The position numbers and the translations under genes were made by a program. From contig JABVCE010000011.1 of the NCBI GenBank assembly GCA_014905635.1, positions 1,178,001 through 1,242,000 of the forward strand: DNA of 64,000 nucleotides, read 5' to 3'. The notes beneath the pieces are model-generated. The model made no database searches. It saw only the letters and a list, made by a program, of their open reading frames with translations, and was not told where the DNA came from. Source of the DNA: Scenedesmus sp. PABB004. Taxonomy: Eukaryota. This document shows, in pieces, positions 1,044 to 64,000 of the stretch. Positions within the stretch are counted from its first letter, which is position 1. Each line of letters opens with the position of its first letter.

Positions 1044-2645
1044 TCACTCCCAGTCGTCCACGCGCTCGTAGCGGCGCTGCGGCAGCGGCGGCGGCTGCGA
1101 CTGCGACTGCGGCTGCGACAGCGGCGGCGGCGGCGCCTCGCCCGGCGCGAGCGGCGGCAGCGCGCCGTCCGGCGCGTACGGGTAGCCGCCGTCCTGCAGC
1201 AGCCCCGCGGCGGCGGCGCCGCCGCCGTAGTCCTGCGCGCTGCCCAGCCAGGCACCGTCCGCCTGGTAGGCGCCGCCGCCGCCGCCGCCGTACGGCGCGC
1301 CGTAGCCCGGCGCGCCGCCGTACGGCTGCTGTTGCTGCTGCTGCTGGAACGGCGGCAGCGGCGCGCCGCTGGCCGGGCCGCCGACGAGCTGCTGCTGCTG
1401 CTGCTGCTGCGGGTCGTCGTACGCTGCGTACAGCCCCTCCGGCTGCGCCTGCGCCTGCTGGCCCCAGTATGCGGCGTAGCCGCGCGCCGGCTCGCCCGGC
1501 GGCAGGCCCCAGCGCCCGCCCGCCTGCTGCGGCTGCTGCTGCTGCAGCGGCTGCGGCGCGCCCGTCGCCCAGGGCGCCAGGCCCGCGCGCTCCGCGCCGC
1601 CCGGCGGCAGGTAGCCGGGCGCGCCATAGGCGTCGTCGGGCCCCGCGCCCAGCCCCATGCCCGCCTGGCCGCCGTAGCCCTCCGGCGGCGGCAGCCCGCC
1701 CATGCCGCCGCCCTCCTCCTCCTCGTTGACCTGGGCGCGCAGCTTGAACGCCTCGAGGCCGTACCAAAACGCCACCGACGTGGTCAGCGCCTGGCGGCGC
1801 AGCGCGCGGCGCAGGCGGCGCGGTCGGCGGGGGCAGGCGGCGCAGGCGGCGGCAGCGAGCCGGCGCGCCGCGGCGCGGCCGGCCGGGGCGGCGGGGCTGC
1901 GCGGCGAGCCTGGCGCAAGAGCCTCGCGCGCGCGGCGCGGCGCGCCTGGCAGAGCAGTAGCAGCGGGTCGAGGCGCCAGCCCTGGAAGATGAGCGTGCTG
2001 CCGACGATCGAGATCATCGCCGCGACCACGATGTCGGCGTCGCGCGACACCTCACGCTGCATGTTGCGCACCTGGCGGCGGCGGCGGCGCGCAGCGGTGT
2101 GCGGCGGCGCGAGTCCGCGGCGCGCGCGGCGCATGGCGGCCGGGCGGCGAGGCGCGGCGCGCGTGGCGCACCTGCAGCAGCGCGATGCCGCAGCCGATGA
2201 GCGTGATGCCGAGCACCAGCGAGGGGCTGGCAAAGTCGACGTTGATCATCGCGAGCGGCGGCAGGCCGGCGCCCGGCGGCAGCGCTGCCGCGCCGCCGCC
2301 GCCGCGGGCGCCGCGGCGTGGCGCCGGCGCCGCCAGAGCGGCCGACCGGGGCGCCAGCGCGGGGCCCGCGGGCCGAGCGCGGCGGAGCGCCGACGCGCGG
2401 CCGCCCGCGAGCGGCGCGGCGGGCGCCGCTGCCGCCGCTGCCGCCGGCGTGCAGCCGCGGCGCAGGGCGGCCATGGACGCGCGTGTGCTGCGCCCGGCCA
2501 CGGCCGCCGGGACGCTTGCCTGGGAGCGGGGCGAATTGCGGGCGGCGTGGGCGCGTGCGGGCGAGCTGGGCGCCCGCATGTGCCGCGGCGCGCAGGGCGC
2601 GGCGCGCCTCACCCGCGCGGCGCCTGCGGGCGCTACCGCCCGCAT
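1044..2645 (-). CDS. ycf66: Ycf66-family protein, nuclear-encoded, with putative plastid transit peptide and Q/P/G/Y-rich tail (4 exons)
   Basis: Spliced peptide MINVDFASPSLVLGITLIGCGIALLQ|VRNMQREVSRDADIVVAAMISIVGSTLIFQGWRLDPLLLLCQ|ALTTSVAFWYGLEAFKLR has the Ycf66_N signature (SRD.D, FQGWRLDP); Ala/Arg-rich N-terminus; start codon choice uncertain. Confidence 0.88.
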
Positions 2646-2929
2646 CTGCGGCCTCAGAAGAGTGGGGGCACCGGTTGGCCGCAAACGCCCGCGCTTGGAG
2701 TGAGGGCGCGGGCTCGACGGGCGCGCAGCGTGCGGCGGGCCTGCGGGGCGCGTGTGGTGCTCGACGAGCGTCACTGCAGGCACGCGCCAACCGGGCGCCC
2801 TGAATAGACCGCCGCTGCACCGCGCGCCGCTGCACCGCCGCCCGTCACGCCGCGCGCCGCTGCGATCGGGCGCACGCGCCGCGCGCCCGCCGCCGCCGCA
2901 CACGCGCCGCCGCCGCACCACCGCACGCC

Positions 2930-3653
2930 ATGGACGCCCCAGCGCCGCCGCGCGCGGGCTGGGCGGAGCTCGCGCCGCGCGTGGCCGCAGCGCTCGCCGA
3001 CGTGTTTGGCCACGCGAGCTTCCGGGGGTCCCAGGAGGCCGCCGTCCGCGCGGCGCTGGAGGGTGCGCGCCGCCGCCGCCGCCGCCACAAGCACCAGCGC
3101 TCGCGCGCGCTGCTCACGCGCCGGCGCACCGCGGGGAGCCAGGGCGCGACTCCTTTGTGCTGATGCCGACGGGCGGTGGCAAGAGCCTCTGCTACAGCCT
3201 GCCGGCGGTCGTGGGCGGCGGCCTGGTGCTCGTCGTCTCGCCGCTGATCGGTGCGGCGGCCCGCCGCGGCGCGCGACCACCCGCGCTGCTGCGGCGCGCG
3301 ACCGCCCGCGCCGCGCACCCGCGCGCCCCGCGCACCCCGCGCACCCCTGCAGCGCTGATGCAGGACCAGGTCGCGGCGCTGCGCGGCCGCGGCGTGGCGG
3401 CCGACTACCTCTCGAGCAGCCGCTCGCCGGCGGAGCGCGCCGACACGCTGCGCCGCCTCGACGCGCTCGCGAGCGCCAGCGCCGGCGGCGGCAGTGGCAG
3501 CAGCGCCGGCGGCGCCGGCGGCGGCGGCGAGCGCCTGCTGCTGCTGTACGTCACGCCCGAGCTGCTCGCGACCGACAGGCGCGCGCCGCGCGAGCGCGGG
3601 CCGCCGCCAGGCAGCCGCGCCCCCGCGGACGCGCGGCGCGGCGCGCCGACCGT

Positions 3654-3691
<38 letters not shown>

Positions 3692-4398
3692 CGCAGCTTT
3701 CGGCAGCGCCTCGCCGCGCTGCACGCCGCGCGCGCGCTGCAGATGCTCGCCGTCGACGAGGCGCACTGCATCAGCGAGGCGCGGCGCGGCGCGGCGCGGC
3801 GCACCCCGCGCCCGCGGCGCGCGCCGCCCGCCGCCGCGTAGCCGGCGCCCCTGAATGTCGCCATGCGCGTCGCCGCGCAGTGGGGGCACGACTTTCGGCC
3901 CAAGTTCCGGCAGCTCTCGGCGCTGCGGGCGCAGCTGCGCGGCCTGCCGTGCATGGCGCTCACCGCGACCGCGACGCGCCAGGTCCGGAGGGGGCCCGGG
4001 GCCGCGTGGCGCGTCGCATGCGCGGCCGCCGCCCGCGCGCGCCTCTCTCGCCCGACCCGGCCGCACCTGGCGCGCCGCCGCCGCCGCCACGCGCCGTCAC
4101 GGCGCAGGTGCGAGAGGACGTCATCGCCAGCCTGCGCCTGGCCGACCCCGCGGTGCTCCTGAGCAGCTTCAACCGCCCCAACATCCACTACACGGTCGTC
4201 CTGCTCGATGTGCAGCAGCCGGCGCAGGGTTTAGGGGCGCCGCAGGCGGCGCGGCAGGCGGCCCTCGGCGGCCTCGCGGGCGACGGCGAGGAGGAGGGGT
4301 GGGACGACCCCGTCGACGCCGCGGCCTGCCGGCAGCTGCTGGCGCTGCTCAAGCCCGGCGGCGGCGCGCGGCAGGAGGGGCGGCAGCAGCAGGAGGGG

Positions 4399-4479
<81 letters not shown>

Positions 4480-6661: not shown

Positions 6662-6768
6662 CCGCTGTGCGGGGCCGTGCGCGCGCGCCGGAACGCCCGT
6701 CGCCAGCCGCGTCAGCGCGCGCCAGCAGCGCGCGCCGCGGGGCCGGGCCGCGGCGGCGGCCGCGGACC

Positions 6769-7395: not shown

Positions 7396-9700
7396 ATGAT
7401 CCTCGAGCGCGCCGCTCGCTGCGGGGGCGCCGCCGCGGGTGCGGCGCGGGCGCGGGCGCCTGCGCGGGCTTAGGGCGAGCTGGGGCCGGGCGGGCGGCGC
7501 GGGGGGCGGGCCGTGGGGCGTGCATGCGTTATGTGCATCCCGCCCGCCCCACAGCAGCGCCGCGCCGCCCCGCCCCGCGCTGCATTGCCCGCAGGCGCGC
7601 CCGCGCGGCCCTGCCCGCCCGGTCGGGCGCGCGCGGTGCGCTGCCGCGGCGTGGCGGCCGCGGAGCGCACCGCTGCGCAGGCGCCGGGCCCGGTCATCAT
7701 GAACGGCCAGGTGCTGCACAGCATAACGCAGGAGCGCCTGGAGCTGGTGAAGACGCTGGGCCCGCACCTGGAGACGCAGGCGCGCCCGCGGCGCCGCGCC
7801 GGGCCAGGGGGGCGGGCGCATCATCAGCAGCGCCCCCGCGCGCCCCCGCCTCACACGCCCCGCCCCCCGGCCGGCGCGCAGGTGCTGCCGCTGCTCAAGG
7901 ACCCCTCCAAGTCCTGGCAGCCCGCCGACTTCCTGCCGGACTCCAGCGACCCAGACTTCCTGGGCAAGGTGCGCGCGCACGCAGCTGCCGCCGCTGCTGC
8001 CGCCGCCGCTGCCGCTGCCGTCGCTCGCACGGGCTGCCGCCGGCGCTCGTGCGGGTTGCAGAGGTAACGTTGCAGCCGCCGTTCAGGACGCGGCTGCAAC
8101 GTGACCTCCACAACCCGCACGGCTCAGGCCGCAGCCCGTCCGCTGGGCCTCCCGGCGCTCACGCGCCGCCCGCGCCGCCCGCCCGCAGGTGCAGGAGCTG
8201 CGCAAGAGGACCGACCAGCTGCCGGACGACTATCTCGTCGTCTTTGTCGGTGCGCGCCGCGCCAGCAGCACCGGCAGCGCCGGCCGCGCCGGCCGCGCCG
8301 GCGGCGCAGCAGCGGCGGCAGCAGTGGCGGGAGCTCGCCCGCCCCGCCCACGTCCGCGCCCCGCCCGCGCCTGCGCGCGCGCCGCCGCGGCCAGGCGACA
8401 TGATCACCGAGGAGGCGCTGCCGACGTACATGGCGATGCTCAACACGCTCGACGGCGTGCGCGACGAGACGGGCGCGTCGCCGACGCCGTGGGGCCGCTG
8501 GACGCGCGAGTGGACGGCCGAGGAGAACCGCCACGGCGACGTCATGAACAAGTACATGTACCTCACCGGCCGGTGAGGGAGCGAGAGGGCTGGGCGGTGC
8601 TGGGCGGCCGAGGGCGAGAGGGCGGGGGCGGTGCTGCGCGGCGGCTGCTGGGCGGCGGCTGCGCGGCAGCGGCTGCGCGGGGCGGGCGTGGGCGCCGCGA
8701 GGGCGGCAGCGGCGCAGGCCGGCCGCGGCAGCCGCCCGCCGGCCCCTCCCGTCCCCGCCGCCGCCGCCGCGTGCCCTAAACCCTACCCGCCCCGCGCGCC
8801 CCGCGCGCGCGCCCCGCCCGCAGCGTCAACATGCGCGCGATCGAGGTGACGATCCAGAACCTCATTGGCAGCGGCATGGACCCCAAGACCGAGAACAACC
8901 CCTACCTCGGCTTCATCTACACCAGCTTCCAGGAGCGCGCGACCAAGGTGCGGCGGCGTTGTTCGATTGTTTGCTCAGTACCGAACAAACATATGGGGGC
9001 GCGCGGCGGCGGTTGGCGGCGGTGGTGGTGGTGGTTGGTGGCGGTTGATGGCGACGGCGGCGGCACGCAGCGGGGAGCGACTGGCGGGGCGTGCGTGCGA
9101 GGGTCTGCACTGGAGCCGCAGGCGGAGGCGGCGAGGCGGGAGGGCGGGCGGCGAGCTCACGCGCCGCGCCGCCGCCGCCGCCGCCGCGTCGTCGTCCGCC
9201 GCCAGATCTCACACGGCAACACCGCGCGCCACGCGCTCGAGCACGGCGACGAGGTGCTGGCCAAGATCTGCGGCTCCATCGCGAGCGACGAGGGCCGGCA
9301 CGAGCAGGCGTACCAGCGCGTGCGTGACCCGCTGGGGGCTGCTCCTGCACACGCTCCCGCCGCGTCTCACCGCGCCGCCCCGCCCCGCCCTGCCCCTGCC
9401 CCGCCCTGCGCCCGCGCGCGTGCGCAGATCATGGACGCGGTGTACGAGAAGGACCCCAGCGGCGCGACGCTCGCGTTTGCCGACATGATGCGCAAGCAGA
9501 TCGTCATGCCCGCGCACCTCATGGACGACGGCGAGCACGCGGCCAAGACCGGGCGCAACCTCTTCGCGGTGAGGCAGGGGGCGCCCCGGGGGCGACGGAG
9601 AGGCCCGGCGCGGCGGCCGCGCGGGCCGCGCGCCCGGCGCCGCAGGCGGGCTGGCGGCCACGCCGGGGCCCGGTGGCCGGACGCCGCTCACACACCGCGC

Positions 9701-17412: not shown

Positions 17413-20400
17413 TCACGACTGGTTCATGTACGTCGAGGTGTCGATGCTCGCGGGCAGGGGCTTGATGTCGACGTCGAAGCGCTCCTGCACCTTGTTGAGC
17501 GTGTTGGAGTCGGCCTCGGTCGAGACGAACGTGATCGCGAGGCCCTTGGTGCCAAAGCGCCCCGCGCGGCCGACGCGGTGGAGGTACGTGTCCGCGCCGT
17601 TGCCGTGGCGCTCGTCAGTGACGGGCATGTCGTAGTTGATGACGATGTTGACGCGCTCCACGTCGATGCCGCGGCCCACCAGGTCGGTCGCGACGAGGAT
17701 GCGCACCTGCGGCGAATGGCGGCGCGGCGGGGCGGTGCGGCGGCGCGCGCGTGGCCGAGAGCTGGGCGCGCCGCGCGGGCAGAGGGACGGGCGGAGGCGC
17801 GCCGCGGGCGGGGCCAGCGGCCGGCCGGCCGGGCGGGGCGGCGCGGGGCGGGGCGGGCGGGGGGTGCCCGGGCGCGCACCTGGTTCTCCTTGAACTGCTT
17901 GTACACCTCGAGGCGCTTCTCCTGGGGCATGCCCGCAAAGATGCAGACGCTCGGGAAGTTGCACTCGTTGAGCAGCGTGTTGAGCGTCTTGGCGCGCTGC
18001 ACGCTCTTGACAAAGATCACCACCTGCGCGGCCGCCCGGGCGCGCGGGCGGGCGGGCGGCGCGTGGGCGCGGGCGCGCGCGAGGGGGGGGGGGGGGGCGC
18101 ACATTCTGGCGCCGCGCGCGGGCGGCGCGGCGCGGCGCGGCGCGCTGCTGCGCGGGCGCGGGGGCGGGCGGCCCTCCTCCTCACCTGGTTGAAGTCGAGC
18201 GCGTCGAGCAGGTCGGTGAGCTTGCGGTTCTTCTCCTCCTCGTGCAGCATCACGTAGTGCTGCACCAGGCCGTGCAGCGTGAGCTTCGACTCGTCGTCGA
18301 CGTAGATCTCGGCCGGCTGCGCGCGGCGCGGCGCGATGTGGTGCGGCGCGCGCGGGCGGGGCGGGCGGGCGCACGCGGCGTGGGCGGCGCGCGCCGCGGC
18401 CGCGGCGCTGCACAGCGAGTGCGCGCGCGCCCGCCCGCCGCGGCCGCGGCCGCGGGCGGCGCCGCGCGGACCGCCGGCGAGGCCAGGCGAGGCGCGTGGA
18501 GGACGCTCCACGGCCGCCTCCAGCCGGCGCCGCGCCGCGCCGCGCGCACGCCGCCCCTCTCAACCGCCGCTCCAGCGCGCCGCCGGCCGCCGCCCGCAGC
18601 GCCGGTGCGAGCCGGGCCGCGGGCCGCTGCGCCGCCAAGCCCGCTGGCGCTGCAAGCCATGCAAACACAGGCTGCCGGCGGCAAGCAAGCCTCGCTGCCG
18701 CGGCGACTGCCTCTCTTTTTCTTTTTTGCCCGCCCCTGCACGCGCACACCGACCGTGCCGTGCTGCACCCGCCTGGCTGGCCGCCAGGGGGTGGGCAGGC
18801 GGGCGCGCGGCACCCCCGCGTCGCCGTGGGGATGCCTGCGCAGCGCCTGGGCGCGCCAGAGCCGAGCTCGGCCACGAGGGCCGAGCTCGCTGGCCGCCGC
18901 CGCGGGGCTGGCGTCGGGCGCGCGCGCGGGCGCGTGGGCACGTGCGTGCGCGCTGGGGGCTGCTGGTCGCATGCCCGCGCAGCGGCAGCGCACGGCACAG
19001 AGGCGGCACCGCGACGCGCGGTGCCCGGCTGACCAGCGCCCGCACAGCAGGCTGCGCCCTGGCAGCAGCGGCAGCAGCAGCGGCTGCTGCTGCGTTGCCA
19101 GGGCTCCGCGCGCCGGCGCGGCTGCAGGCGCGACGGCACGCCCCTGCAGCCGCACCTGCTGCGCCGCCGCGACGCGGCGGCGCGTGCGCGGCCGGCGCCG
19201 CCCGGCCGGCCAACGGCCCGCCGCCGGCGCGTGCTGGTGCGTGTGCGCGCGTGGATGTGCGTGTGTGCTGTGGATCGCGGGGCCCGCCTGCTGCCGGCGC
19301 CCTCAGCGCGCGCACAGCGCCGCCGGGCGCCGCGTCCACGCGCGCCCGCCGGCCCCGCGTCGCGAGGCGCATCCGGGTGCGTGTCCGGGACGCACTTTGT
19401 TCATGAACTTCTTGCACACGGTGCGGATGTCCTTGGCGAGCGTGGCGCTGAACATCATGACCTGCTTGTCGTGGGGCGTCTCCTTGAAGATGGCCTGCAC
19501 GTCGCTGCGCATGTCTGCGGCGGCGCGCGCCGGCCGGCGGCGGCGCCGCCCCCGGCGCGTGAGCGAGGGGCCGCCGCCGCGCCGCACACGCCCCTCCCCC
19601 TGCCGCGCTGCGCCTGCCCCTCCCGTCCTCCCCTCCCGCCCTCCCGCTGCCCCCGCGCTCCTCGTCCCGCGGCCGCTGCTCACCGTTCTTCTCCAGCACC
19701 TTGTCGCACTCGTCGATGACAAAGAACTTGACCTGCTTGAGGTTGAGGTCCTTCTCAAGCGCCAGCTGGAGAGCAGCAGCGCGCGCCACCGCGGCGACGT
19801 GGCGTGCATGCGGGGCGGCGGGGCGGCAGGCGGGGGTGAGCGGGGGCGAGCGGGGCGAGCGGGTGAGCGGTCGGGTGCGGGGCCGGTGGCCGCCGCCGCT
19901 GCTGCTGCGCTGCCGCCGCTGCTGCCGCTGCCGCCGCTGCTGCGCGCCGCTGCCGCTGCCGCGGACCTGCTTGATGCGGCCGGGCGTGCCGACGACGATG
20001 TCGGGGCACTTGTCCTCGTTCTTGAGCAGCTCGCGCTGCGCCTTGACGTCCATGCCGCCGAAGAAGTTGCCGACCTTGACGTTCAGCGGCTTGCCGAAGC
20101 GCTCAAACTCGCGGCAGATCTGCGCGCGCACGCGCGCGCGGGCGGCGCCGCAGTCGGCGGCGAGCAGCGGCGGCGGCGCGCGGCGGCGCGCCGCGGCGCG
20201 CGCGCGCGCGCGCTGGCGTCCTGGCGCGGCCGCGCGTGCCAGGGGCGCGCGCGGGTGCGCCGGCGGCGCGCCTGGAACGCCAGCTCGCGCGTGTGGCAGA
20301 GCACGAGCGCCTGCGGGACGCCCTTCTTGGGCTCCAGGTTCTGCAGGATGGAGATGACAAACACCGCCGTCTTGCCCATGCCCGACTTGGCCTGGCACAG

Positions 20401-21911: not shown

Positions 21912-22958
21912 ACGCGCCCGGCCACGCGGCCGACCCTCCTGCCGCTGCGCCGCGCCCGCGCCCGCGCCCGCGCAGCCATGGTGTGGGACGGCCTCGCCGC
22001 GGCGTCCAAGGCGGCGCTGGACAACAAGGCCTGCCTGTTCAAGGGACTGGCGGGCGTCATGACGGTGCTGCAGGACGTGTCACGCGAGGCGAGGCCGCGG
22101 CGGCGCGGCGCGTCTGCGGGCGCGGCGCAGCAGGGCGGCGCGGCGCGCGCCCGCCCCGGCGTCGACCGCGCCGCCTGCCGCCCGCGCCCGCAGATGACCG
22201 AGCTGCAGCAGGAGCAGCAGGACCGCTACGGCCACGCGGCGCCGGCAGCAGGCGCCGCGGCGGGCGGCGAGGGCGCAGACGGCGACGACGGCGCAGCGGG
22301 CGCCGCAGCGGCGGCGCCGGGGCCGGCGGGCGCAGCGGCGCCGCCGGCGCCGCGCTCGCCCGGGTCGGACTCGGGCGAGGCTGACTCGCTGGACTATGAG
22401 GGCGGCGAGATGAGCGGCGCCGAGCGCGAGCTCCTGGCCGCGTGCCTCGCGCTGCTCGCCGCGGCGACGGCGACGCTGCGCGCGTTTGGTCGGGCGCTGC
22501 TGCGCGGCCCCGCGCTGCCGCCGGGCGGCGAGGCGCTGGACGGCTGGGAGAGCTGCGCCTTCCACGCGCGCCACCTGCGCCGCGCGGCGGAGGACCTCGG
22601 CGCGGCGATGTACCCGCCGCAGGTGCGGGCGGCGCCGCGGCCGCTGCGCCCACGCGCCCTGGCCGCCGCCGCCGCCGCCGCCGCCGCTGCCTCGATCGCC
22701 GCGGGCGCTGCCGAGGCGCTCCCGCGCTCGCCCCCGGCGCAGGACTTTGAGGAGGTGGGCAGCGCGGCGCTGGCGGTGTTTGAAGTCACGGAGCTCATGG
22801 CCGACGAGTGCCCCGACGCCGACGCGGTCGGCGCGGGCGAGCTGTCGGCGCTGGCCGCCGGCCTCGCGGCCGCGCACGCGCGCGTGCAGGCCGCGCTCGG
22901 CGAGGCGCAGGCGGGCGCGAACAACGAGGGCAGCGCCAGCGACGGCGGCGGCGCGTGA
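21229..22958 (+). CDS. Cyclin-D1-binding protein 1 (GCIP/CCNDBP1) family; 6 exons
   Basis: GPSLK, VWDG...DNKA...LQDVSRE|M, acidic linker, [11 protein letters not shown] motif typical of GCIP. Confidence 0.75.
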
Positions 22959-23081: not shown

Positions 23082-25668
<2,587 letters not shown>

Positions 25669-31100: not shown

Positions 31101-32301
31101 TGGTTCTTCGGGGCCATCCAGTTCCCCAGCGTCTACTCCAGCCCCAGCGCGCCGGGGCTGCTCGTCGGCAGCGGCAACGTCGGCGGCGAGGGCGTCGGCC
31201 TCGACGACAACGACGGGTGACCGCCACGCGCGCCAGCGGCCAGCGCCAGCGCCGCGGCGGCGCCAGCGCCAGCGCCGCGCCCGCCGCGGCGGCGGCCGCC
31301 TGCCGCCCGCCGCCCCCGGCCGGGCCCGGCCCGGCCCGCCACCCGCGCTCGCACGCCTGGCGCGCCCCCGCGGCGCCTCCCGCGGCCGACCTGCCCCTCT
31401 CCCGTCACCCTGCCCGCCGCCGCACCCGCCGCACCCGCACCCGCGGCGCAGGCTGTGCACGTGGCTCTCGTTTGACGGCGGCTTCACCTGGTCTGACATC
31501 GCTGAGGGCACGATGATCTATGAGTACGCCGACTGGGGCGGCCTCGTGGTCATGGCGCGGCACGAGCTCAGCGGCCCCGCAGACGAGGTGCGCGCGCGGC
31601 GGCGCGGCGCTGATGTGGCGGCCGGGCGCGGCGTGGCGCCGCCGGCGGCTGGGGCCAGCAGCGCCCGCGAGCGGCGGCCCGGCGCAGCGCTGCCGGCGGC
31701 GGCCCCCGCTGCGCGGCCGACGGTCCCCCCGCGCCGCGCCGCGCCGCGCCGCGCCGTGGGTGTGCCAGGTGCGGTTCAGCTACGACTACGGGCGCTGCTG
31801 GCGCAGCGTGCCGCTGGACGTTGCCCTGTACGTGGAAAACATCCGGTGCGCCGCCGCCGCGGCGCCGCGCCCGCGCGCGCACGGCCCCGCGCCCCGCGCG
31901 CGCACGGCCCCGCGCCCGCGCGCGCACGGCCCCGCGCCCCGCGCACGGCCCCGCGCCCCGCGCGCGCCTCCACGCCGCCCGTCGCCGCCGCCGCCCGCCG
32001 CCGCCCGCCGCCGCCCGCCGCCGCGCGCGCGCGCAGCATCGAGCCCGACGGCCAGCGCCCCAAGGTGCTGCTGCACGGCAAGGCGTGCCGCAGGAGCGCG
32101 CACCCCAAGTGCGCGTACGACGCGAGCGACACGCGCGCCGGCATACAGGGTATGGTCTACGCCCTCGACGTCTCACAGGCGCGCAGCCGCGCACACACGC
32201 GCACGCGCGCGCGCGGATGGGCCGCTGTGTTGAGGCCAGCCAGCCGCCCTCGCCCCGGCCCTCGCCCCGACCCCCGGCCCGCCCGCCTGCGCCGCCGCCG
32301 T

Positions 32302-32342
<41 letters not shown>

Positions 32343-33282
32343 AGGTCATGGGTGACAAGATGCCGCCGTGCGGCGCGGCCGACTACGAGCAGTGGACGCT
32401 GCCGGCCGACGACCACACGCCGCGCTGCCTTCTCGGTGCGGCGGCGCACGCGCGCACGCCCGCGCACCCCGCGCCCGCGCCCGCGCCCGCGCGGCGGCTG
32501 CTGAGCACTCAACCCCGCCGACGTCCGGCCGCGCCGCCGCAGGCGCGCAGCGCATGTTCACGCGGCGCAAGCAGGACGCGGTGTGCCTGCAGGGCGGCGC
32601 GTACGCGCGCCCGCCGCCGGCCAACACGACCTGCGGCTGCACGCCGGGCGACGTGGAGTGCGACTACGGCTTCGTCCCGTCGCCCGACGGCGCCTGCACG
32701 CCGCTGCCGCCGGTGCGCCGCGCCAAGCCGCGCCGCGCCGCGCCGCGCCAGGCCGCCGCCGCCGCTCGGCAAGCGATCAATATGATATCTCGCGCTCACG
32801 CGCCACCGCGTCCGCGTCCGCGTCCGCGTCCGCCGCCGCGTCCGCGCGCCGTCGGGCGCAGGAGAAGCTGAGCGGCTGCCCCACGATCGACGGCGGGGCC
32901 TACCACGTGTCGGCGAGCGGCAAGCGCCTCGTGCACGGCGACGTCTGCACCGGGCTCGGCGCGATCATACCCGACACCGACGGCAAGGGCGCGGTGCGCC
33001 CGGCGCGCGGCCCGCGCCGCAGCCGCACGCCGGCGGCGGCGGCGCGAGCGGCGGCCGCGGCGGCGGCGGCGGCGGCGGCGGCGCGGGCGGGGTGTTTGTG
33101 TGCCTCGTGCTGCTCGCGGTGCTCGGCGGCGGCCTGGGCGCGTGGTACCAGTTCGTGGCGTCGCCGAGCGCGCGCGCCCAGGCCGACGACGCGGCGTCGG
33201 CGGTCAAGGGCGTCGTGCTGAGCGTCGCGGGCCTCGTCGGCGACCGGCTCGCGGCGTGCCTCGGCCGCGGCGGCGGCGCGGG

Positions 33283-38091: not shown

Positions 38092-40477
38092 ATGTACCGC
38101 CTGCAGTCGCTGCTGGGCGCCTGGCTGCCCGGCGCCGCGGCGGACGACGCGGCGGCGACGCGCGGCGCCGCTGCCGGCTTCTGCGCCGCCGAGTTCCCCC
38201 AGGCGCGCGCCGCCGCCGCGCCCACCGCGCTGCCGTGTCCGCCACGCCCCTGACGTCCGCCGCCGCGGCGCAGATGTGGGGAGCGTTCGTGGAGCACGTC
38301 GTCGACAGCGCGTACCTCCGGTCCTGCGCCGCGCCGCCCGCGCCCGAAGTGCGGCGCCCGCGCCACGCCGCCGCCGGCGGCGGCAGGTCGCCGGGGGCCG
38401 CGCGGGCGGCGCGTGAGGCCGCCCGCCGCGCGCGCGGAGCGGCCGCGGGGCCGACGCGCGCCTCCGCGCCGCGCCGTGCCGCCCGCGCGCAGCCGCCGGA
38501 GCTGCCGCCGCTGCGGCTGCCGCCGGCCAAGCGCCTGGTCGCGATCGGCGACCTGCACGGCGACCTGGAGAAGGCGCTGCGCGCGTTCCGGCTCGCCGGC
38601 CTCGTCGACGAGCGCGGCGCGTGGAGCGGCGGCGACGCGGTGTGCGTGCAGGTGCGCGCCGCCGCCGCGCTCCCCCGCTGTGCTTCCTCGCGCCCTCGGG
38701 AGAGCCCCCCCCCCCCTGGCCCCCTGTCCCGCGCGGCGCACGCAGCCCAGCCCCCGCGCCGCCGCCGGCTCACGGTCTGCCGCCGCTCGCGCTCCCGCGG
38801 GCCTCGCCTCCCTCCCTCCCTCCCTCGCGCGCAGGTCGGCGACATCCTGGACCGCGGCGACCAGGAGATCAAGCTCCTGTACCTCCTGGAGCGCCTCCAG
38901 CGCCAGGCGTCGGCCGCGGGCGGCGCGCTGCACGTGCTCAACGGCAACCACGAGACCATGAATGTGGGCGGGAACTTCCGCTACGCGACCGCGGGTGCGG
39001 CCGGCCGGCGCCAGGGGCAGGGGGCAGGCGCGGCGCGGCAGGCGGCGCGGCGGAGAGGGGCGGCGCGGCGGGCGGGCGGCGCGGCACGGCAGGCGGCGCG
39101 GCGCGGCGCGAGCAGGCGCGCGAGCGCCGGCCGGCGCGGCGCGCAGGCGCCGACCTGGAGATGGCGGCGTGGCGGCGCTGGCGCGCGCTCGGGCAGCGCC
39201 TGCGCGACACGTGCGCGGCGTGCCCGTCCGCGGCGGCGGACGCGGCCGCGGCGGGCGCGCCGATCGACGCGGCGAGCGCGGCGGACGCGCCGGCGACGGT
39301 GTCGGTGGGGCGCGGCGCGCGGCAGTTCAACCCGATGCGCGACGCGGCGCTGCGCCCAGGTGCGCGCGGGCGGCGGGGCGCGGGGGCGCGGGGGCGCGGC
39401 TGCGCTGCCGACCGAGGGGGGCGGGCGGCGTGGGAGGCGGAGGGAGGCGCCACGCGGCGCACGGCCCACGCCCGCACCCACACCCACACCGCCGCGTCTG
39501 CGTCCGCGCAGGCGGGCCCCTCACGCGGCGCTTCTTTGCGGGGCACCCCGTGGTGCTGCAGGTCGGCAGCACGCTCTTTGTGCACGGCGGCGTGCTGCCG
39601 GCGCACGTCGAATACGGGCTGGCCGCGATCAACGCGCAGACGCGCGAGTGGATGCTCGGCGGCGACGGCGCCGGCGGCGGCGGCGGCGGCAAGCGCGCGG
39701 CGCCGCCGCCGTTCCTGCGCGGCGCCGACGCGGTCGTGTGGGCGCGGTGCGCGCAGCGCAGCGGCGGGCGCGCGCGCGCGCGCGCGCAGGGGGCCTGGCC
39801 GCCCGCCGGCGGCGCGGGGCCGCCGCGCGCCCGCCCGCCCACGCGTGCCGCCGCGCAGGGACTACTCGGCGCGTGACGAGGCGCGGTGCGACTGCGACAA
39901 GCTGCAGCAGGTGCTGGAGGCGCTGCCGGGCGCAAAGCGCATGGTGGTGAGCCGGGCGGGGGCGGGCGCCCGGGGCGCGGCGCAGCTGGCGGCGTGCCGC
40001 AAGCGCTGGGCTCTCCTCGCGCGCACGCGCGCGCGCGCCAGCCTCAGCGCTCCGCGCCGCGCGCAGGTGGGGCACACGATCCAGGATCGCGGCATCAACG
40101 GCGCGTGCGGCGGCCGCGTGCTGCGCGTGGACGTGGGGCTGTCGCGCGGCTGCGGCAACGGCGACGTGCAGGTGCTCGAGATCACGCAGGACGGCGGCCG
40201 CGTGCTGCGCCTGCGCGAGGGCCTAGAGCCGGAGCTGGTGCAGGCGCAGCAGCAGGCGACGCCGGAGGCGCCGCAGACGCCGGAGCCGCCGGCGCAGCCG
40301 GAGCAGCCGCCGCCGCCGCCGATGCCGCGGCCGCCGGCGTCGCAGCCGCAGCTCGTGCACGCGGCGTTCGCGGCGTGGCCTGCGATGGCGGCGGCGCAGC
40401 AGCGGCAAGCCGGCAGCGGGCCCGCACGAGATCGAGAGCCAGAGCGAGAGCGAGGGCAAGCGCCCGCCCCCGCCTGA
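38092..40477 (+). CDS. Shewanella-like protein phosphatase (SLP2-like metallophosphoesterase)
   Basis: AIGDLHGD, VGDILDRGD, NGNHE, FVHGG, VGHTIQ, RVDVGLS; N-terminal C...PQ|MWGAFVEHVVD resembles plant SLP2. Confidence 0.9.
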
Positions 40478-40645: not shown

Positions 40646-43519
40646 ATGAGCGAGACCGACGACGAGCGCGTCTGGTACACGCTGGGCGCAGACCGCAATG
40701 CCGTGGGGCCGTACAGCGTCGCGGACCTCACGAGTGCGGCGCCGCTGACGGGGCGCGGGGCCTCGCGCGGCGGCGCGGGCCCGAACGTGCGCCGCCGCTG
40801 CTGCCGCCGCCGCTGCCGCAGGCTACGCGGCCGCTGGACTGCTCGGCGAGGCGCAGGTGTTCTGGAGGCAGGGACAGCCGACCTGGGATAAGCTGCAGGA
40901 CGTGCCGGCGCTCGCCGGCGTGCTGGCGGCGCGGCGAGCAGCGCCGAGCGCCGCTGCCGGCGGGTGCGCGCGACCGGCGCCCCGCCGCGGCCCCGCAGAG
41001 CCGGCACCCGCCAGCCCTCCTGCAGCAGGCGGTCCATGCCTGACGCCCGCTGGGGCCTCGCTGACAGCCCCGCGCCCGCCGCTCGCTGCGCTCCGCCGCC
41101 CGCAGCGGCGCCGGCGGCGCGCCCCCCGCGCACCCGCACCACCCCGCCGTGCTGAGCGCCAAGGCGTCCGACCCGCTCGACGCGTTCCGGTCCCAGATCG
41201 CGGCGGTCGAGGCGGGCGGCGGCGCCGACGCGGCGCCGGGCGGCGGCGAGCCCGAGCGCGCGGGCACGCCCGAGGAGCTAGAGTTTGAAGACGACGACGG
41301 CACGACCTACAAGTGGCACCGCGTGCTGCGCAAGTACGTCCCCGCGGCCGAGGCCGACGCCGACGCGGCCGCCGGCGCGGCGGCGGGCGCGGCGGCGTAC
41401 GACGTTGAGGCGATGACGTTTGTGGCTGAGGAGGAGGTCATACCCACACTCGCCGCGGCGCGCGCGGCCGAGGAGGCCGCGGCCGCGGCGGCGGAGGCCG
41501 CCGGCGGCGGCGGCGACGGCGGCGGCGGCGGCGGCAGCAAGGTGCGGCGCGGCGGTGGCGGCGGCGGCGGCGGTGGCGCGCGCGCGGCGCGCACGTGATG
41601 CCCGCCCGAACGCGGCCGCCGCCGCCGCGCCGCCGCGCAGCGCGGCGCCGACGGCGAGGCGGGGCCGCGCGGCAAGCGGGCCAAGGGCGGCGAAGCGCCC
41701 GGCGGCGAGGCCGCTGCAGCAGGCGCTGCAGCCGGCGCCGACGGCGCGCAGCAGGAGGAGGGCGAGCAGAAGCCCGGCTGGTTTGAGCTCAAGGTGGGGC
41801 GCGGGCGGCGCTGGCACCGGCAGGGCGCGCCCGCCCGGAGGCGCCCCGTCCCGTCCACGGCCGCCCGTGCTCACGGGCGACCCCCGCGCGCCGCCGCCGC
41901 CTGCGGCTCGGCGGCGCGACGCGGCAGGCCACGACGAGCGTGTACGTGTCGGGCCTGCCGGGCGACACCGACGTGGACGAGGTGGCCGGCTTCTTTGCAA
42001 AGTGCGGCATCGTCAAGCTCGACGACGCGGGGCAGCCGCGCGTCAAGCTCTACCGGTGCGCCGCGTGCGCTCGGCGCAGGGGGGGGGGGGGCGCACAGCG
42101 CAGGCCCTGCCGCGCCGCAGGGGCCCGCCGCGGGCGGCGCGCGCGGCGTCCGAGGGCGCGCACGCGCGCGAGAGAGAGCGAGGGAGCGGCAGAGAGTGTG
42201 CGCCGCGCCGCGCCGAGCGCCGCGTGCCGCCGTGCGCCCGCGCAGGCACAAGGACAGTGGGCTGCTCAAGGGCGACGGCCTGGTCACGTACCTCAAGGCC
42301 CCCTCGGTGCCGCTGGCGGTGCAGATCCTGGACGGCACGCCGCTGCGCGTCGGCGGGCCGCCGCTGGCCGTGTCGGAGGCGCGGTTTGAGATGAAGGGCG
42401 ACGCGTTCAAAGACAAAAAGGGCGGCGCCGCCGGCGACGCCGCCGCGGGCGCCAAGGGCGGCAGCGGCGGCAAGGGCGGCGGCAAGGGCGGCGGCAAGGG
42501 CGGCAAGGGCGGCGGCGGCGGCCGCGGCGGCGGCGGCCGCGGCGGCCGCGGCGGCGGCCGCGGCGACAAGAAGAAGCGGCCGTTCACGCAGCTGGAGAAG
42601 CTCGAGCGCAAGCTGGGCTGGGGCGGCTTTGACGACGCGCTGCCGCCGGAGAAGGCGCGCCGCGCGCGTGCTGCGCCGCTGCGCCGCCGCCGCCGACGGC
42701 CCGCGCGCGCGGCGAGCGGCAAGCGCACGCCCGCCGCCCGAGCGCCCGCTGGTGCCGCCGGTGCCGCCGCGCAGGTCACTGTGGTGATCAAGGGCATGTT
42801 CACGCCCGCCGAGGCCGACGCGGGCGGGCCGGGCTTTGGCGCCGAGCTCGAAAAGGACGTGACCGCTGAGTGCGCCAAGCTGGGCAAGGTGGAGAAGGTG
42901 GGCAGCCGGCCGCCGCGCCGCGCCGCGCCGCGGCGGCCCGGGCGCGCGACCACCACCCGCCGCCGCCGCCCGCCCGCCGACGCCGCGCCGCGCCCAGGTG
43001 CGCGTGTTTGCGTCCCACCCCGAGGGCGTCGTGACGGTGCGCTTCGCGCAGGAGGAGCCCGCGGCGACGTGCCTCGCGCGCATGCAGGGCCGCTGGTTTG
43101 GCGGGCACCAGCTGCAGGCGGCGATGTGGGACGGCGTGACCTCGTTCCACGTGCGCGACCCGGGCGGCGCGCGGCGCGGCGGCCGGCGCGGCGCCGACAC
43201 GCGCTCCTCTCGCCTGCGGGCGCCGCCCCCTGGGCAGGGCGCGCGCCGCGCCCGTTGCCCGGCCGCGAGCGCCGCGCCGACCGCCGTGCCGGCCCCGCCG
43301 CCGCCGCCGCCGCCGCCGCAGGCCAAGGCCGAGAAGAAGGAGTCTGCGGAGGAGGAGGCGGCGCGGCTGGACGCGTTTGCGCGCGAGCTGGAGGCGCAGC
43401 ACGCGGCCGAGGCGGCGGCCGAGGCGGCAGCAGCCGAGGCGGCGGCGGCCGGCGCGGCGGGCGGCGGCGCGGCAGCGAGCGAGGCGGCGGCGGGCGACGG
43501 GGGCGCAGCGGCGCCATGA
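40646..43519 (+). CDS. TatSF1/CUS2/ELF9-like U2 snRNP-associated splicing factor (GYF_2 + RRM + UHM); 9 exons
   Basis: WY...VGPYS...WRQGQPTW; EFEDDDGTTYKW; VYVSGLP, FAKCGIVK, KGDGLVTYLK..SV.LA; ERKLGWGG; ECAKLGKVEK|VRVF..HPEGVVTVRF; MQGRWFGG. Confidence 0.93.
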
Positions 43520-53807: not shown

Positions 53808-54901
53808 TCACTGCTGGCGCGCGGGCAGGCCGGGCATGAGCGGCGGCAGCACGTCCTTCTTCTCGCCGCCGCCGCGGCCCGCGCCGCTGCCGTCGCTGAT
53901 GAGCTGCACGTCGACGCCCTGCTTGGTGGGCATGATCCGCGCGACGATGCCTGACGTCGCGCGCGGCGGGCGCGTCGGCCACAGGCGGGCGCGTCAGCCA
54001 GAGGCGGGCGACGAGCCCACCGCCGGCGCCGCCCGCAGCCCGCCAGGCTGCGCGGGCCGGCCGGCGCGCACAAAGCGCGCCCAGCGCGCGCACCCGGGCC
54101 GAAGAAGCTCTGGAACTTGGGTTGCCGCTCCTCCCAGATGGACAGCTCCAGCTTGGACTCAAACTCCAGCGTCAGGCAGTACGCGCCCTGGAGCGCGGCG
54201 CGGCGCGGCGCGCGCGCCGGGCGTCAGGGCGGCGCGCTGCACCAGGGCCCGCGCCCCGGCGCGCCCGCGCGGACCGCGCGCTCGGCGGCCGCGCAGCGCC
54301 CCGCCTCTGCCGCCGCGCCCCCCGCCGCCGCCCGGCGCCCGGCGCACCTCCACGACCTCCTCGCGCAGCCCCCTGAGGCGCGGGCACATCTTCTTGGGCG
54401 GGTTGCCCTGCCGGCCGAAGCGCCAGATCTTGTCCAGCGCCTCGTCGAGGTGCTGCTCGTCACCATACCTGCGCGCAGCATGGCGTGGCAATGGCGGTGT
54501 GGGCGCGGCATACGCGTCACCGCGCCGCGCGGCCCCGTTGCACGCCGGCGGCGCCGCGCCGCGCGCGCCCTGCGCGCGCGCGCGCGCCTGTAGCGCGTCG
54601 TGTCCTCGCGTATCTGCTTCTGTATGTCGGTCATCTGGCTGCCGCGCAGCTCGTACGCGGCGCGCGTCGTCGCGCAGGGCACGGGCTCGAGCTGCGCGTA
54701 GCTGAGCGCAAAGCCGAGGATGGACATGGGGAAGCCGTAGATGAGGAGGACGGAGGAGATGTCTGTGCCGGGGAGCAGCGTGAAGTAGGCGCCAAAGCCG
54801 TAGACCATCAGCCCCAGGCCCAGCGGCGTGAGGATGGAGCCGTAGGAGATCTTGGTGATGCTGAACTCCGAGTCGGGGACGAGCTCCGCGCCCGGGCCCG
54901 A

Positions 54902-56031: not shown

Positions 56032-58644
56032 ATGGCGCCCGCGGCGCGCGACAAGCGCTCCTACGCGCAGCAGTTTGCGGACCTGAAGGGCTGCACCGAC
56101 ATGTCCATCTTCAACACCGCCTACCCCAAGCCCGACCAGGCCGCGCAGGCGGCGGAGCCGGGTGAGGGCGAGCCCGCGCCGCGCCGCGCGGCGCGCGCCC
56201 CGCTTCATCAGTCCGCCCAACCCCGCTCGCTCTCTCTCTCTCTCTTCTATTTTCTCGCTGCTCACCCGCCCACGCTGCGGCCCGGGCGTGGCGTCGCAGG
56301 CGCGTACCTCATCCCCTTTACCGACGGCATCTACGCGCGCCGCGAGCCCCGCCCGCTGCTGTCGGTCGAGCCGACGACCATGTCCAAGGCCGCCACCGAC
56401 GCGCGGCTGCGCCGCATGTACCTGGAGCGCTACTTCGGCCTCATCGGCATGCACGCCGTCGCGTTCTTCGTGAGCGGCCCGCGCCGGGCGGCGGGGCCGG
56501 GCCGGGCCGGCGCGCGCGCGCGGCCCGACCCCCGCGGGCCTCGCAGCTGCTGACCTCTACCAGGCCCAGGCCGCCGCGCGCGGGCGCCGCTTCAGCGCAG
56601 CGCAGCTGAACCCGCCGCGCCGCCACCGCCGCCGCCGCCGGGCCGCAGGTGGCGCCGTTTTACTTCTCCTGGTCCAACCTCGCCCTCGGCATGACCGTGT
56701 GGTACTTCACGCACGCCATCGGTGCGGCGGCGGCGCTCGAGCGCGGCGGCGCCGGCAGCTTTGCCTCGCGCGCGCGCGCGCGCGCGCGCGCGGCGCTCCA
56801 CGCTGCGCTGCTGCAGCTGCAGCCCGCGCCAGCGCCCGACGCCGCCGCACGTGCCGCCGCCGCCGGGGCGCGGCGCCGCAGGCATCTGCTACAGCTACCA
56901 CCGCCAGCTCACGCACCGCTCGTTCAAGACGCACAAGGCGCTCGAGTACTTTGCGGCCTGGCTCGGCAGCCAGGCGGCGCAGGGCCCGCCCATCGAGTGG
57001 TGCGGCGCGCCGGCGGCGCACGGGGGGCCCCCGGGGACCCCTGCGACGCTCGTGCGTGCAAGCGCGGGCGCGCCCTCACGCGCCGCCCGTTGCGTGCCGT
57101 GCCGCGCAGGGTGTCGACGCACCGCTACCACCACCTCCACACCGACACGCCCCTCGACCCCCACAGGCGCGGCGCGGCGCGGCGCGGCGCCGCTCGCCCG
57201 GCTCGGCGCGGGGCGCCATCCTCACGCCGCCGCTCCCCGCTCTTTCCCTCGCCGCGCGCAGCCCGTACGAGGGCTTCTGGTGGTCCCACATGGGCTGGTT
57301 CGCGGACGCCAAGGTGTGATCCCCGCGCGAGCGCGCTCGCGCGCGCGCGCGCCGCGGCGGCGCGGGGCCGCGAGGCCGCCCGCCGCCGACCGCCGACCGC
57401 CGCCCGCCGCCGCGCCGTGCGCCGCAGGCGGCGTGCGAGCGTCCGACGCTGGACCACAGCAACGTGCCCGACCTCACCTCGCAGCCCTTCTACCGCTTCC
57501 TGCAGGCCACCTGGTTCTGGCAGCTCATCGCGCGCCACCTCATCACCCAGGTGCGCGGCGGGGTTTAGGGTCTGTAAAAGCTGCGGGTCCCAAACCCCCT
57601 CAAGGAACCCTGGGAAGCCCCCAAGGCTTTGAGGCCGACGCCGCCCGCTGACGCCCGCCGCCGCCCGCAGTACTTCTTCGGCACGTCCGCCGTGTGCTGG
57701 ACGCTGGCCTTCCCCATCGTGTACGGCTGGGCCGTGACATTCTCCGTCAACTCGTGAGCGCCGCCGACACACAGCGCCGCCGACGCCGCCGCCGCCGCCG
57801 CCGCGCCGCTGGCCAGCGGGCACGCGCCCCCTGCAAGCCCGGCGCGCCGCCGACACCGCGCCGCGCGCCGCCCGCAGCGCCGCGCACCTGTGGGGCCGCC
57901 AGCCGTACGACACCGGGGGTGAGCGTGCGGCCGGCCGGCGGGGAGGGCGCGGCCGGCGCCGCGCGCGCAGGCCGGCCGCCGCCTCGTGCGCGTGCGCGGG
58001 CCCCAAACCCGCCGCCGCCGCCGCCGCCGCCAGACCTGTCGCGCAACAACTGGTGGGTCGCCCTGCTCGCCGCCGGCGAGGGCTGGCACAACAGGTGGGC
58101 CTCGCCTGCTCGCCCGCGCGCCGGCCAGCGCGGCGCCGGCGGCGGGCGCCGCGCCCCCCCCCCCTGCCGCGCCGCCCAGCTCCCGCGCGCCGCCCCGCCT
58201 GCCCCTCGGCGCCGCCGCAGCCACCACATGTATCCCTTCAGCGCGCGCCACGGTGAGAGCGCCGCCGCCGCCGAGGCTCGCGCGCCCGAGCGCGCGCGCA
58301 CAGACAGTGTTTGTCGCGCGTGCCGTCACCCAGCACAGCACCCCGGCCTGCGTGCTCGCGCTGCCGGCGGCGCGCCGCCGGCCGGCCCTCCCCCGACGCC
58401 CCCGCCTCGCCGCCGCGCCGCCGGGCGCCCCGCCGCAGGCCTCGAGTGGTGGGAGTTTGATATCACCTGGATGCTCATCCGCACCCTGGAGCTCCTCGGC
58501 CTCGCGTGGGACGTGCAGCTGCCGAGCAAGAAGCAGATCGCCGCGAAGCGCGCGCCGGCGGCCGCCAAGACGGCGCCGGCCGCCGGCGGCAAGCCCGCGG
58601 GCAAGGTGCAGCTGCGCGCCAAGCTCGTCATGCGCGCGGCGTGA
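56032..58644 (+). CDS. Acyl-lipid/acyl-CoA delta-9(7)-type membrane desaturase (ADS/FAD5 family); 12 exons
   Basis: His boxes YHRQLTHRSF, HRYHHLHTD, GEGWHNSHH; DPHSPYEGFWWSHMGW; SARHG|LEWWEFD. Confidence 0.95.
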
Positions 58645-61859: not shown

Positions 61860-61866
61860 TGGCGTG

Positions 61867-61955
61867 GGCGGCGCGGGCGGCGGCGCGGGCGGCGGCGCGG
61901 GCGGCGGCGCGGGCGGCGGCGCGGGCGGCGGCGCGGGCGGCGGCGCGGGCGCGGG
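61867..61955 (+). repeat. 12-mer tandem repeat (GGCGGCGCGGGC) x~7 just after the TauE stop
   Basis: Seen directly. Confidence 0.85.
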
Positions 61956-62725
61956 TCTGAACGCACCGGCGGCACTCAACTGGGGCTTGGCTGGGCCGCC
62001 GTCCGCGGGTGGCGCTGCGGTTGGCGTTGTGCGTGTGCGCGCACTGGTCTCTCCGCAACACATGCAGCCCTGTGCCGCTGTGTGCGGCCCGAACTGAACG
62101 CGTCTGGTGTGGCGGCGCTATGTGGCAGTTCCCTGGCAACATCACAGAGGCATCTCGCGGCCCGCCCGCTGCGCGCGTCGCGCTCGCCGCCGGCGCCGCG
62201 CCGCGCGGCGCCAGAGCACCGGGTGCGGCGCCGCACCGAGGGAGCACCAGGCCCCTGCACGCTTGGGCCGCAGACGGCACGCTTTCAGCGCGAGAGTGAC
62301 CACACGACGCGCCCGACAGGAGCTCGCCAGCCTCGTCCAGGGCGCAGGGGTCCAGCGCGGGGCCGGCACCGGCTTCGTCACCGTGCCCGTCCCCCCCTGC
62401 TGCACCCATGCGCAGGGCGCGGCTCTGCACCCATGCGCAGAGCGCGGCTCTGTCCACCGCGCACGCGTCGCCGCTGCCACACGCACGTCGCCGCCGCTCG
62501 CTCGCTCGCGCCCGCGCACGGCAGAGCAGCGGCGTGTCCCGCGAGCCGGCGCCGCGCCTTCGAGCCTGGACGCAGGCCAAGGATCGCGGCGCGGCTGGCC
62601 CCCGCTGGTGCCGCTGCTCAACAACGCCCACGCGCCGCGCTCGCCGCCCTCCTGCCAGCGCGGCCCCGGGCCCACGGGCGGCGTCCACGCCGGGAGGAGC
62701 GTCGTGGGAGGCGTCGCGCGGGCCC

Positions 62726-64000
62726 ATGCAGGCCCACCGGCACGCGGCGCGCGGCGCTGGCGGCGGCACCGTCGCGGCGCTGCCGCGGGCGCAGCCGCAG
62801 CAGCGGCCGCGCCGCCGCGTGCGGGCGTGCGCCGCCTCCGGTGCCGCCGCCGCCGCCGCCGCCGCCGGGCCGGTGCCTGGGCCGCCCGGCCTGGCGCGGC
62901 GCATCCTGGCCAACCCGGAGCTCGAGGGGGAGCCGCTCGCGTTCCTCAAGGCGACCGAGGCCTTCTGGTCGGCCCTCAAGCAGCAGAAGCACGACCCCCG
63001 CCGCCGGGGCCCCACCCCCGTGACAGCCAGCCCGCAGCCCTGCGCGGCGCACGTCGGGGGCGCGCCCGCGCCCGCGAGCGCCGCCGCGCCGCGGCGCGGC
63101 CCCGCGTTTGGCGCCGCGCCGCCGCGCGTCGCCGGCGCGCCCGCCGCGGCGCCCGCGGCGGCGCACGACTTTGACGTCGTCGTGTGCGGCGGCGTGCTCG
63201 GCATGCTGGCGGCGCTCGCGCTGCAGTCGCAGGGCTGGCGCGTCGCGGTCGTCGAGCGGCGGCTCGCGGTCGGCCGCGTCGCCGAGTGGAACGCCGCCTG
63301 GTCGGAGCTCAAGGCGCGCGGCGCGCGGGGCGGCCGGCCGCCCGCACACGTGCCCGCCCGCCCGCGGCGGCGGTCCGAGCCGCCCGCGCTTGCACCCCTG
63401 CCCCCGCCCGCGCCACCGCGCAGGTGCTCGCGGAGCTCGGCCTGCTGAGCGAGGCCGAGCTGCGCTCGAGCGTCGCGACGAGCTTCAACCCCGTGCGCGT
63501 CGCGTTTGCGGGCGCCGCCGGCGCGCCGCCCGCGGCGCCGCTGCTGGTGCAGGACTGCCTTAACCTGGGCATCAGCCCCAGCCGCCTCGTCGCCCTCGCG
63601 CTCGCGCGCTTCGAGGCGCTCGGCGGTGCCGTTTACGAGCACACGTCGTTCAAGGTGCGTGGGTGGGTGCGTGCGTGCGTGTGTATGTGTGTGCGTGCGC
63701 GCGCGCGGCGGGCTGGCGAGAAGGCAGCCTAGCCTGGCTGTCCAGCGGGCGGCAGGCGGGCGGGCGGCGTCCGGCCGCGCGCGCGGCGCCGCGCTCGCTC
63801 ACGCACCCCCGCCGCCGCGCCGCAGTCGGCGGTGGTCTGCCCCGACGGCGTGGCGCTGACGACGGCGCCGTCGCGCGACGCGCCGCCCGACGTGGGCGAC
63901 ACAAACCGCCCCAACGGCCTGCGCACGCGGCGCGGCGCCGCAGCGGCGGCGGTGCCGCGTCTGCGCTACGTGCCTGGCGAGGGGCTCGTGCACTCTGGCG
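62726..64000 (+). CDS. CruP/CruA-like FAD-dependent oxidoreductase (lycopene cyclase-like), 5' part; runs off the window
   Basis: FDVVVCGGVLG, VAVVERR..GRVAEWN, VATSFNPVRVAF, DCLNLGISP; transit-peptide-like N-terminus. Confidence 0.82.

Follow-up and report, generated by a model that had tools for sequence, protein, structure and literature searches.

In animals, fungi and plants, GT-AG introns account for 97.9-98.7% of introns and GC-AG introns for about 1% or less, and the GC content of splice sites correlates with that of the genome, as given in PMC7072748. Higher frequencies are on record for GC-rich algae. Among 241 curated junctions of the haptophyte Emiliania huxleyi, 56% are GC-AG, with nine GC junctions confirmed by reverse transcription-polymerase chain reaction (RT-PCR); the authors blame the genomic GC content of 65% for this and also report that the prediction of junctions by ab initio gene finders fails in this organism (Feldmesser et al. 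2014, PMC4028052). In the pelagophytes Aureococcus anophagefferens and Pelagomonas calceolata, 14-17% of introns are predicted to be GC-AG, a share tied to their high GC content, and in a lower-GC relative the share is 0.32% (bioRxiv 10.1101/2024.10.30.620910). Here, we describe GC-AG introns in a stretch of 64,000 nucleotides (nt) from the chlorophycean alga Scenedesmus sp. PABB004 (assembly GCA_014905635.1, contig JABVCE010000011.1, positions 1,178,001 to 1,242,000 of the forward strand), designated the window, whose first letter is position 1 in all coordinates given below.

Like the U2-type GC-AG introns known from animals, plants and fungi, these introns start with GC, end with AG, follow the species' own GT consensus in the rest of the donor and conform more closely to the consensus at the other donor positions, with AG at positions -2/-1 in 11 of 12 introns fixed by homology. 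The difference lies in the frequency, which is about 14% here (9-28%, from one window) as compared to about 1% or less in those organisms. With E. huxleyi the window shares the combination of a GC-rich alga and common GC donors; however, in that haptophyte GC is the majority donor at 65% GC and the junctions are proven by RT-PCR, whereas here GT remains dominant at about 80% local GC and the junctions are known from genomic sequence alone. The pelagophytes have a nearly equal share of GC-AG introns and likewise a high GC content, but they are stramenopiles with 0.1-0.9 introns per gene, whereas the window contains many short introns per gene, about 130-160 being predicted over 23 predicted genes. 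U12-type introns, whose defining donor motif is RTATCCTT-like (quoted in PMC2846911), are similar in tolerating non-GT donors, but differ since all 18 GC donors considered here consist of GCG[CA]G following an exonic G, which is the species' own U2-type pattern. U12-type splicing was tried as a candidate and rejected, the extended donor motif being found at none of the 18 donors.

A sequence-only reading of the window had listed GC donors at these 18 sites, nearly all of them in the form AG|GCGCG, and this description agrees with the letters. The first two intron bases are GC at all 18 coordinates, AG precedes the donor at 17 sites (the exception being 24624 with TG), GCGCG is present at 17 donors (the exception being 22089 with GCGAG) and AG|GCGCG occurs in full at 16 of the 18. 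Since such motifs are abundant at 76-82% GC, with AGGCGCG occurring 70 times on both strands of the window, 16 of these being the claimed donors, and GCGCG 3,088 times, the motif alone is weak evidence and homology constitutes the deciding test. The length of 12 of the 18 claimed introns is not divisible by three, hence the downstream homologous frame requires splicing; the other six are in frame. Homology support is precise to the junction at 12 of the 18 sites (3579, 3779, 7780, 20271, 23994, 24346, 24624, 24831, 29607, 30226, 32179 and 54587), which are thereby fixed to the nucleotide, and partial at two (1945 and 22089), with the ab initio gene model providing the support at the remaining four (38203, 42655, 57167 and 63314).

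For the homology test, homologues were fetched for four genes, and profile hidden Markov models (HMMs) were built from the near full-length sequences, which numbered 76 of 120 for monodehydroascorbate reductase (MDHAR), 106 of 120 for the RecQ helicase, 59 of 120 for the stearoyl-ACP desaturase and 8 of 75 for sortilin/VPS10. Exons were located by profile searches against translations of open reading frames (ORFs), and at each junction all donor/acceptor pairs within +-45 to 60 nt that left an open frame, with any dinucleotide, were joined and the resulting peptides scored with the profile, amounting to 1,546-4,879 candidates per junction. Manual edits consisted of splitting or trimming five profile hits and adding four short exons (RecQ exon 7 and sortilin e, f and g). 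GC-AG was the best solution at 10 of the 36 junctions of the four genes, and all ten are on the list of the sequence-only reading. Nearby GT donors were covered by this scoring, and at these ten junctions the best GT-AG pair was either 11.7-39.8 bits lower (eight junctions) or nonexistent (two junctions). The spliced coding sequences (CDSs) of the four genes, 6,063 nt in all, contain no stops or frameshifts.

Within the RecQ gene, five of the seven introns are GT-AG and two are GC-AG, namely intron 3 (3579..3696, plus strand), which scored 44.1 bits versus 22.4 for the best GT-AG pair (21.7 lower), and intron 4 (3779..3880, plus strand), which splits helicase motif II, has an in-frame stop inside and scored 87.8 bits versus 48.0 (39.8 lower). 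The desaturase gene has seven GT introns and one GC intron, intron 1 (7780..7881, plus strand), with 91.4 bits versus 66.8 (24.6 lower). The eight MDHAR introns comprise four GT-AG and four GC-AG introns, the latter, all on the minus strand, being intron 3 (24703..24831; 86.2 bits, no GT-AG candidate), intron 4 (24488..24624; 96.8 bits versus 79.9, 16.9 lower), which has the sole GC donor that follows TG and not AG, intron 5 (24142..24346; 80.9 bits, no frame-open GT-AG candidate within +-60 nt) and intron 6 (23883..23994; 101.6 bits versus 83.4, 18.2 lower). Ten of the 13 sortilin/VPS10 introns are GT-AG, and the three GC-AG introns, on the plus strand, are 29607..29769 (110.0 bits versus 92.6, 17.4 lower), 30226..30411 (82.0 bits versus 65.2, 16.8 lower) and 32179..32344 (54.2 bits versus 42.5, 11.7 lower). 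At the second of these, an alternative donor located 6 nt downstream (30232) scored 82.7 bits, 0.7 higher, and is also GC.

The numbering of residues or of profile positions fixes two additional junctions exactly. In the UAP56/DDX39B-like DEAD-box helicase gene, the exons flanking the GC-AG intron at 20120..20271 (minus strand) correspond to residues 34-90 and 91-138 of human DDX39B (chain 1xtk_A), with the upstream exon aligned end to end. In the DUF2854 gene, the exon upstream of the GC-AG intron at 54469..54587 (minus strand) covers positions 1-71 of the Pfam profile up to its last residue, the downstream exon covers positions 73-106 and the split codon is position 72.

Some other features of these genes were also observed. 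In the MDHAR gene (23085-25660, minus strand), the four GC-AG introns are consecutive (introns 3-6 of eight), and much of intron 5 is occupied by a short tandem repeat at about 24200-24290 (minus strand), whose read-through is a repeated Ser-Arg-Ala. RecQ exon 6 contains an in-frame run of about 27 glutamine codons (4396-4480, plus strand) within an insertion of about 90 residues relative to the homologue profile. A microsatellite-like stretch rich in CT/CA lies at about 30028-30117 (plus strand) within the sortilin intron 29959-30132; its GC content is far below that of its surroundings, and it would read through as His/Thr/Leu/Ser repeats.

The context of the two donor classes was compared in the 38 introns fixed by homology (12 GC and 26 GT). 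AG at the exon end precedes 11 of the 12 GC donors as compared to 6 of the 26 GT donors (p = 1e-4, Fisher test), with A at position -2 in 11/12 versus 7/26 and C at position -3 in 9/12 versus 10/26 (p = 0.08). Positions +3 to +5 read GCG in all 12 GC donors and in 20 of the 26 GT donors, in line with the earlier claim that the GC donor mirrors the dominant GTGCG. Acceptors are similar in both classes, C being present at -3 in 12/12 GC and 24/26 GT introns. The same dependence on AG was observed in a larger set of 18 claimed GC and 114 predicted GT donors, in which 17/18 versus 40/114 donors follow AG (p = 1.6e-6), although this set depends on the preferences of the sequence-only reading and of the gene model, of which the homology set is independent. 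Expressed as the share of GC donors in the larger set, it is 30% (17/57) after exons ending in AG and 1.3% (1/75) elsewhere. The suggestion of a relaxed recognition of the 5' splice site, made in the sequence-only reading, finds no support in the stated form, since this contrast is the opposite of what it proposes.

The GT donor consensus is itself unusual, reading G|GTGCG with C at +4 in 21 of 26 and without A-rich positions, and acceptors are CAG in 36 of the 38 verified introns. Of the 45 occurrences of AGGTGCG on the two strands of the window, 27 are predicted donors.

For a count over the entire window, we used a self-trained two-strand HMM with 3-periodic second-order coding states, opposite-strand shadow states, weight matrices for donors and acceptors, a minimum intron length of 35 nt and a C-versus-T prior at +2 re-estimated in each round, which was seeded with 36 homology-derived introns and then trained anew on its own output. 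This gene model converges on 158 introns (114 GT and 44 GC). Of the 36 seed introns, 34 are returned exactly, and all 18 claimed donors are recovered; its two misses among the seeds are the intron at 3779, where the donor was hit with a wrong acceptor (3841), and the weak sortilin intron 6. When it starts from a GC prior of 1%, its first pass yields 32 GC introns and its last one 42. When GG or GA was offered as a third donor type, only four introns each were drawn, versus 40-43 for GC, and a separate matrix for GC donors led to 44-50 GC introns, so that the ab initio count was not sharpened and the predictions in excess of the 18 remained. Barring GC donors within +-60 nt lowered the score by 8.3-22.6 nats at 17 claimed sites, by 6.0 nats at the remaining one (22089) and by 0.4-12.4 nats at the other 26 predicted GC introns, only two of which reach 8. 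Because this test is asymmetric, many GC substitutes being available when GT is barred and few GT substitutes when GC is barred, it favours GC by construction and was left out of the rate estimate.

With the 114 GT introns and the 18 listed GC introns, the GC-AG share in the window amounts to 18/132, or 13.6% (exact 95% interval 8.3-20.7%), with a floor of 12/132 (9%) and a ceiling of 44/158 (28%). The hand count of about 130 introns and a GC-AG share of about 14% in the sequence-only reading, roughly ten times the usual 1% or so, is reproduced by this figure. At a rate of 2%, the probability of at least 18 among 132 is 2e-10, and for the strictly verified 12 it is 1.6e-5. At least one well-supported GC-AG intron is present in 12 of the 23 predicted genes, and one gene has four among its eight introns.

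We consider it very probable that these are ordinary U2-type introns of a chlorophycean alga, in which GC at the 5' splice site results from GC bias and its recognition is compensated and not relaxed. The 5' end of U1 small nuclear RNA (snRNA) pairs with donor positions -3 to +6, such that a C at +2 costs one pair and A at -2 together with G at -1 adds two. GC-biased mutation or gene conversion would drive the change of T to C at +2, and the resulting C would survive only at donors that retain enough pairing to the U1 5' end through exon A at -2 and G at -1, often with C at -3, and intron GCG at +3 to +5. The dependence of GC donors on AG would then be the pattern demanded by an unchanged U1, and the rate observed in the window may extend to the genome. 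Papers that deal with compensation at human GC donors or with the accumulation of such donors in mammals reportedly include Thanaraj and Clark 2001 and PMC2490688, and PMC3167603 is devoted to the compensatory signals of human GC 5' splice sites.

The attribution to GC pressure, already made in the sequence-only reading, agrees with what is stated for E. huxleyi (PMC4028052) and for pelagophytes (bioRxiv 10.1101/2024.10.30.620910), and its warning that standard gene finders would mis-annotate such genes is the same as that found in the E. huxleyi paper. The main consequence concerns gene annotation: with gene finders restricted to GT, or using a GC prior of about 1%, many of the genes of this alga would come out broken or distorted. 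The link between GC content and GC-AG introns has been published for haptophytes and pelagophytes and no new question is opened by it; with this alga, the few GC-rich algae with compositional pressure at the second most conserved intron base come to include a chlorophyte, possibly as the first chlorophyte case of elevated GC-AG. Literature searches combining GC-AG with green-alga terms retrieved no report of elevated GC-AG in chlorophytes, within a coverage that takes in few subscription journals and no supplements, so that their absence is not proven. A metagenome scan with the MDHAR alignment revealed 79 loci, mostly intron-less and of transcript length, with a best segment identity of at most 56% and no genomic locus of a close relative among them. 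The contrast of 30% versus about 1% between donors that follow AG and the others provides a clean natural experiment on the U1 pairing needed to tolerate a mismatch at +2.

Alternatively, the splicing machinery itself might have changed, either by a variant U1 (or U6) snRNA, such as a U1 that pairs with C at +2, or by a loosened proofreading of the 5' splice site, in which case GC would be co-canonical with a share of about 25-30%, including donors without the exon-side AG. Such a shift would be the first case of its kind in the green lineage, and we regard it as unlikely, as is the corresponding view of GC as a second regular donor in at least a quarter of introns, also outside AG|GC. The gene model keeps reaching 42-50 GC introns among about 158-167 from any starting prior, even with a separate GC matrix, while decoy dinucleotides draw only four introns each; however, the 26 GC introns that it predicts beyond the 18 are unverified and unlike the verified ones, with only one of 26 following AG and 12 of 26 being below 80 nt, the length of the shortest verified intron, as compared to 4 of 114 predicted GT introns. 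Most of these extra predictions lie in low-complexity, unconserved sequence, and one of them (30767-30804) contradicts the homology-derived intron 30532-30780 and is wrong. The verified donor at 24624, which follows TG, and the example of E. huxleyi, where GC can be the majority donor, are what a changed machinery would lead one to expect, but the strong AG dependence of the verified GC donors as a class fits an unchanged U1.

It could also be argued that exons were joined wrongly, with nearby GT donors being used or the segments retained as coding insertions, which is open to argument as six of the 18 introns are in frame, the one at 22089 can be read through and stops are so rare at 80% GC that an open frame does not prove an exon. 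Nonetheless, GT-AG costs 11.7-39.8 bits or does not exist at ten junctions, two more are fixed to the residue, a frame shift would result from reading through 12 of the 18 introns and that at 3779 contains an in-frame stop, so that this explanation is highly improbable and is largely refuted for 12 sites by the homology. Errors of assembly or base calling that turned T into C at +2 deserve hardly any credence: extreme-GC regions are indeed hard to sequence, but one specific base would have to be wrong in about 14% of donors, preferentially in those that follow AG, while the 6,063 nt of spliced CDS are intact.

Several points weigh against compensated recognition of GC donors in ordinary U2-type introns, or against the rate attached to it. 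We infer splicing at these borders from homology and coding signal, and six of the 18 sites lie outside the junction-precise homology support. Among these, the intron at 22089 is in frame, stop-free and not forced, and may be coding sequence. Of the 26 junctions called GT, four are less than 2 bits from a GC alternative (MDHAR introns 7 and 8, desaturase intron 2 and sortilin intron 6), and these were assigned to GT by resemblance to the GTGCG consensus only. The proportion of 10/36 is biased upward, since the four genes were picked partly for carrying claims. The denominator of 132 comes from our own gene model, which also contains the 26 unverified extra GC introns, so that the true share lies between 9% and 28%, and a rate from one 64-kilobase (kb) window cannot stand for the genome. 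The pairing to U1 is argued from the textbook U1 5' end and not from the U1 of this alga; an Rfam search of the 64-kb window gave no match at gathering score, and no snRNA gene was found in it.

The remaining six GC-AG introns differ in the support that they receive. In the Ycf66-like gene, the 155-nt intron at 1791..1945 (minus strand) is predicted ab initio with partial Pfam support, as the Ycf66_N match ends at the last residue of the upstream exon, with no Pfam match on the downstream exon; its length is not divisible by three and the score loss upon barring GC donors is 21.9 nats. The weakest of the 18 is a possible GC-AG intron of 105 nt in a GCIP-family gene (22089..22193, plus strand), where the GCIP_N match reaches the last residue before the donor with E = 0.027 and the gene model placed two tiny GC introns in this region instead of one. 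Near the start of the metallophosphoesterase gene, an intron of 71 nt (38203..38273, plus strand) is predicted ab initio, with a score loss of 14.5 nats and a length not divisible by three, and Pfam searches with its flanking exons gave no match. The same holds for the Pfam searches with the exons flanking the intron predicted ab initio at 42655..42774 (plus strand) in a gene with RNA-recognition motifs, for which the score loss is 21.3 nats. In a membrane fatty-acid desaturase gene, an ab initio predicted intron lies in the region of the second histidine box (57167..57261, plus strand; score loss 8.3 nats, length not divisible by three), across which the His-box motif presumably continues; PDB searches with the two short flanking exons retrieved no matches even at E <= 10. 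Finally, in an FAD-dependent oxidoreductase gene, the intron predicted ab initio at 63314..63423 (plus strand) has a score loss of 10.2 nats and a length not divisible by three, with a DAO/FAD-binding match on the upstream exon and no Pfam match on the downstream exon.

The genes of the window were identified by Pfam searches with 300 of its 660 stop-to-stop ORFs, selected by their codon-position GC pattern, and the matches are those of nuclear genes of a photosynthetic eukaryote. They comprise Ycf66-like, RecQ, TFIIS-like, stearoyl-ACP desaturase, subtilase, DEAD-box helicase, GCIP-family, MDHAR, sortilin/VPS10, cytochrome bc1 hinge, LSM, ribosomal protein L27e, metallophosphoesterase and DUF2854 genes. 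Top protein matches point to chlorophycean algae of the order Sphaeropleales, with 98% identity of one desaturase exon to Monoraphidium proteins and 80% identity of one RecQ exon to Tetradesmus and Scenedesmus. The GC content of the window is 76-82% in each 4-kb bin, and that of the verified introns is 85-89%. This local GC content exceeds 72.4%, the highest genome-wide figure that we found quoted for Sphaeropleales (PMC7354681; PMC12571836), either due to an organism that is more extreme or due to the window being an unusually GC-rich region. The GC minimum of the window, 65-75% in 300-nt windows, is located at about 10800-11800, where codon periodicity is absent, and this segment is probably intergenic or untranslated-region sequence downstream of the desaturase gene.

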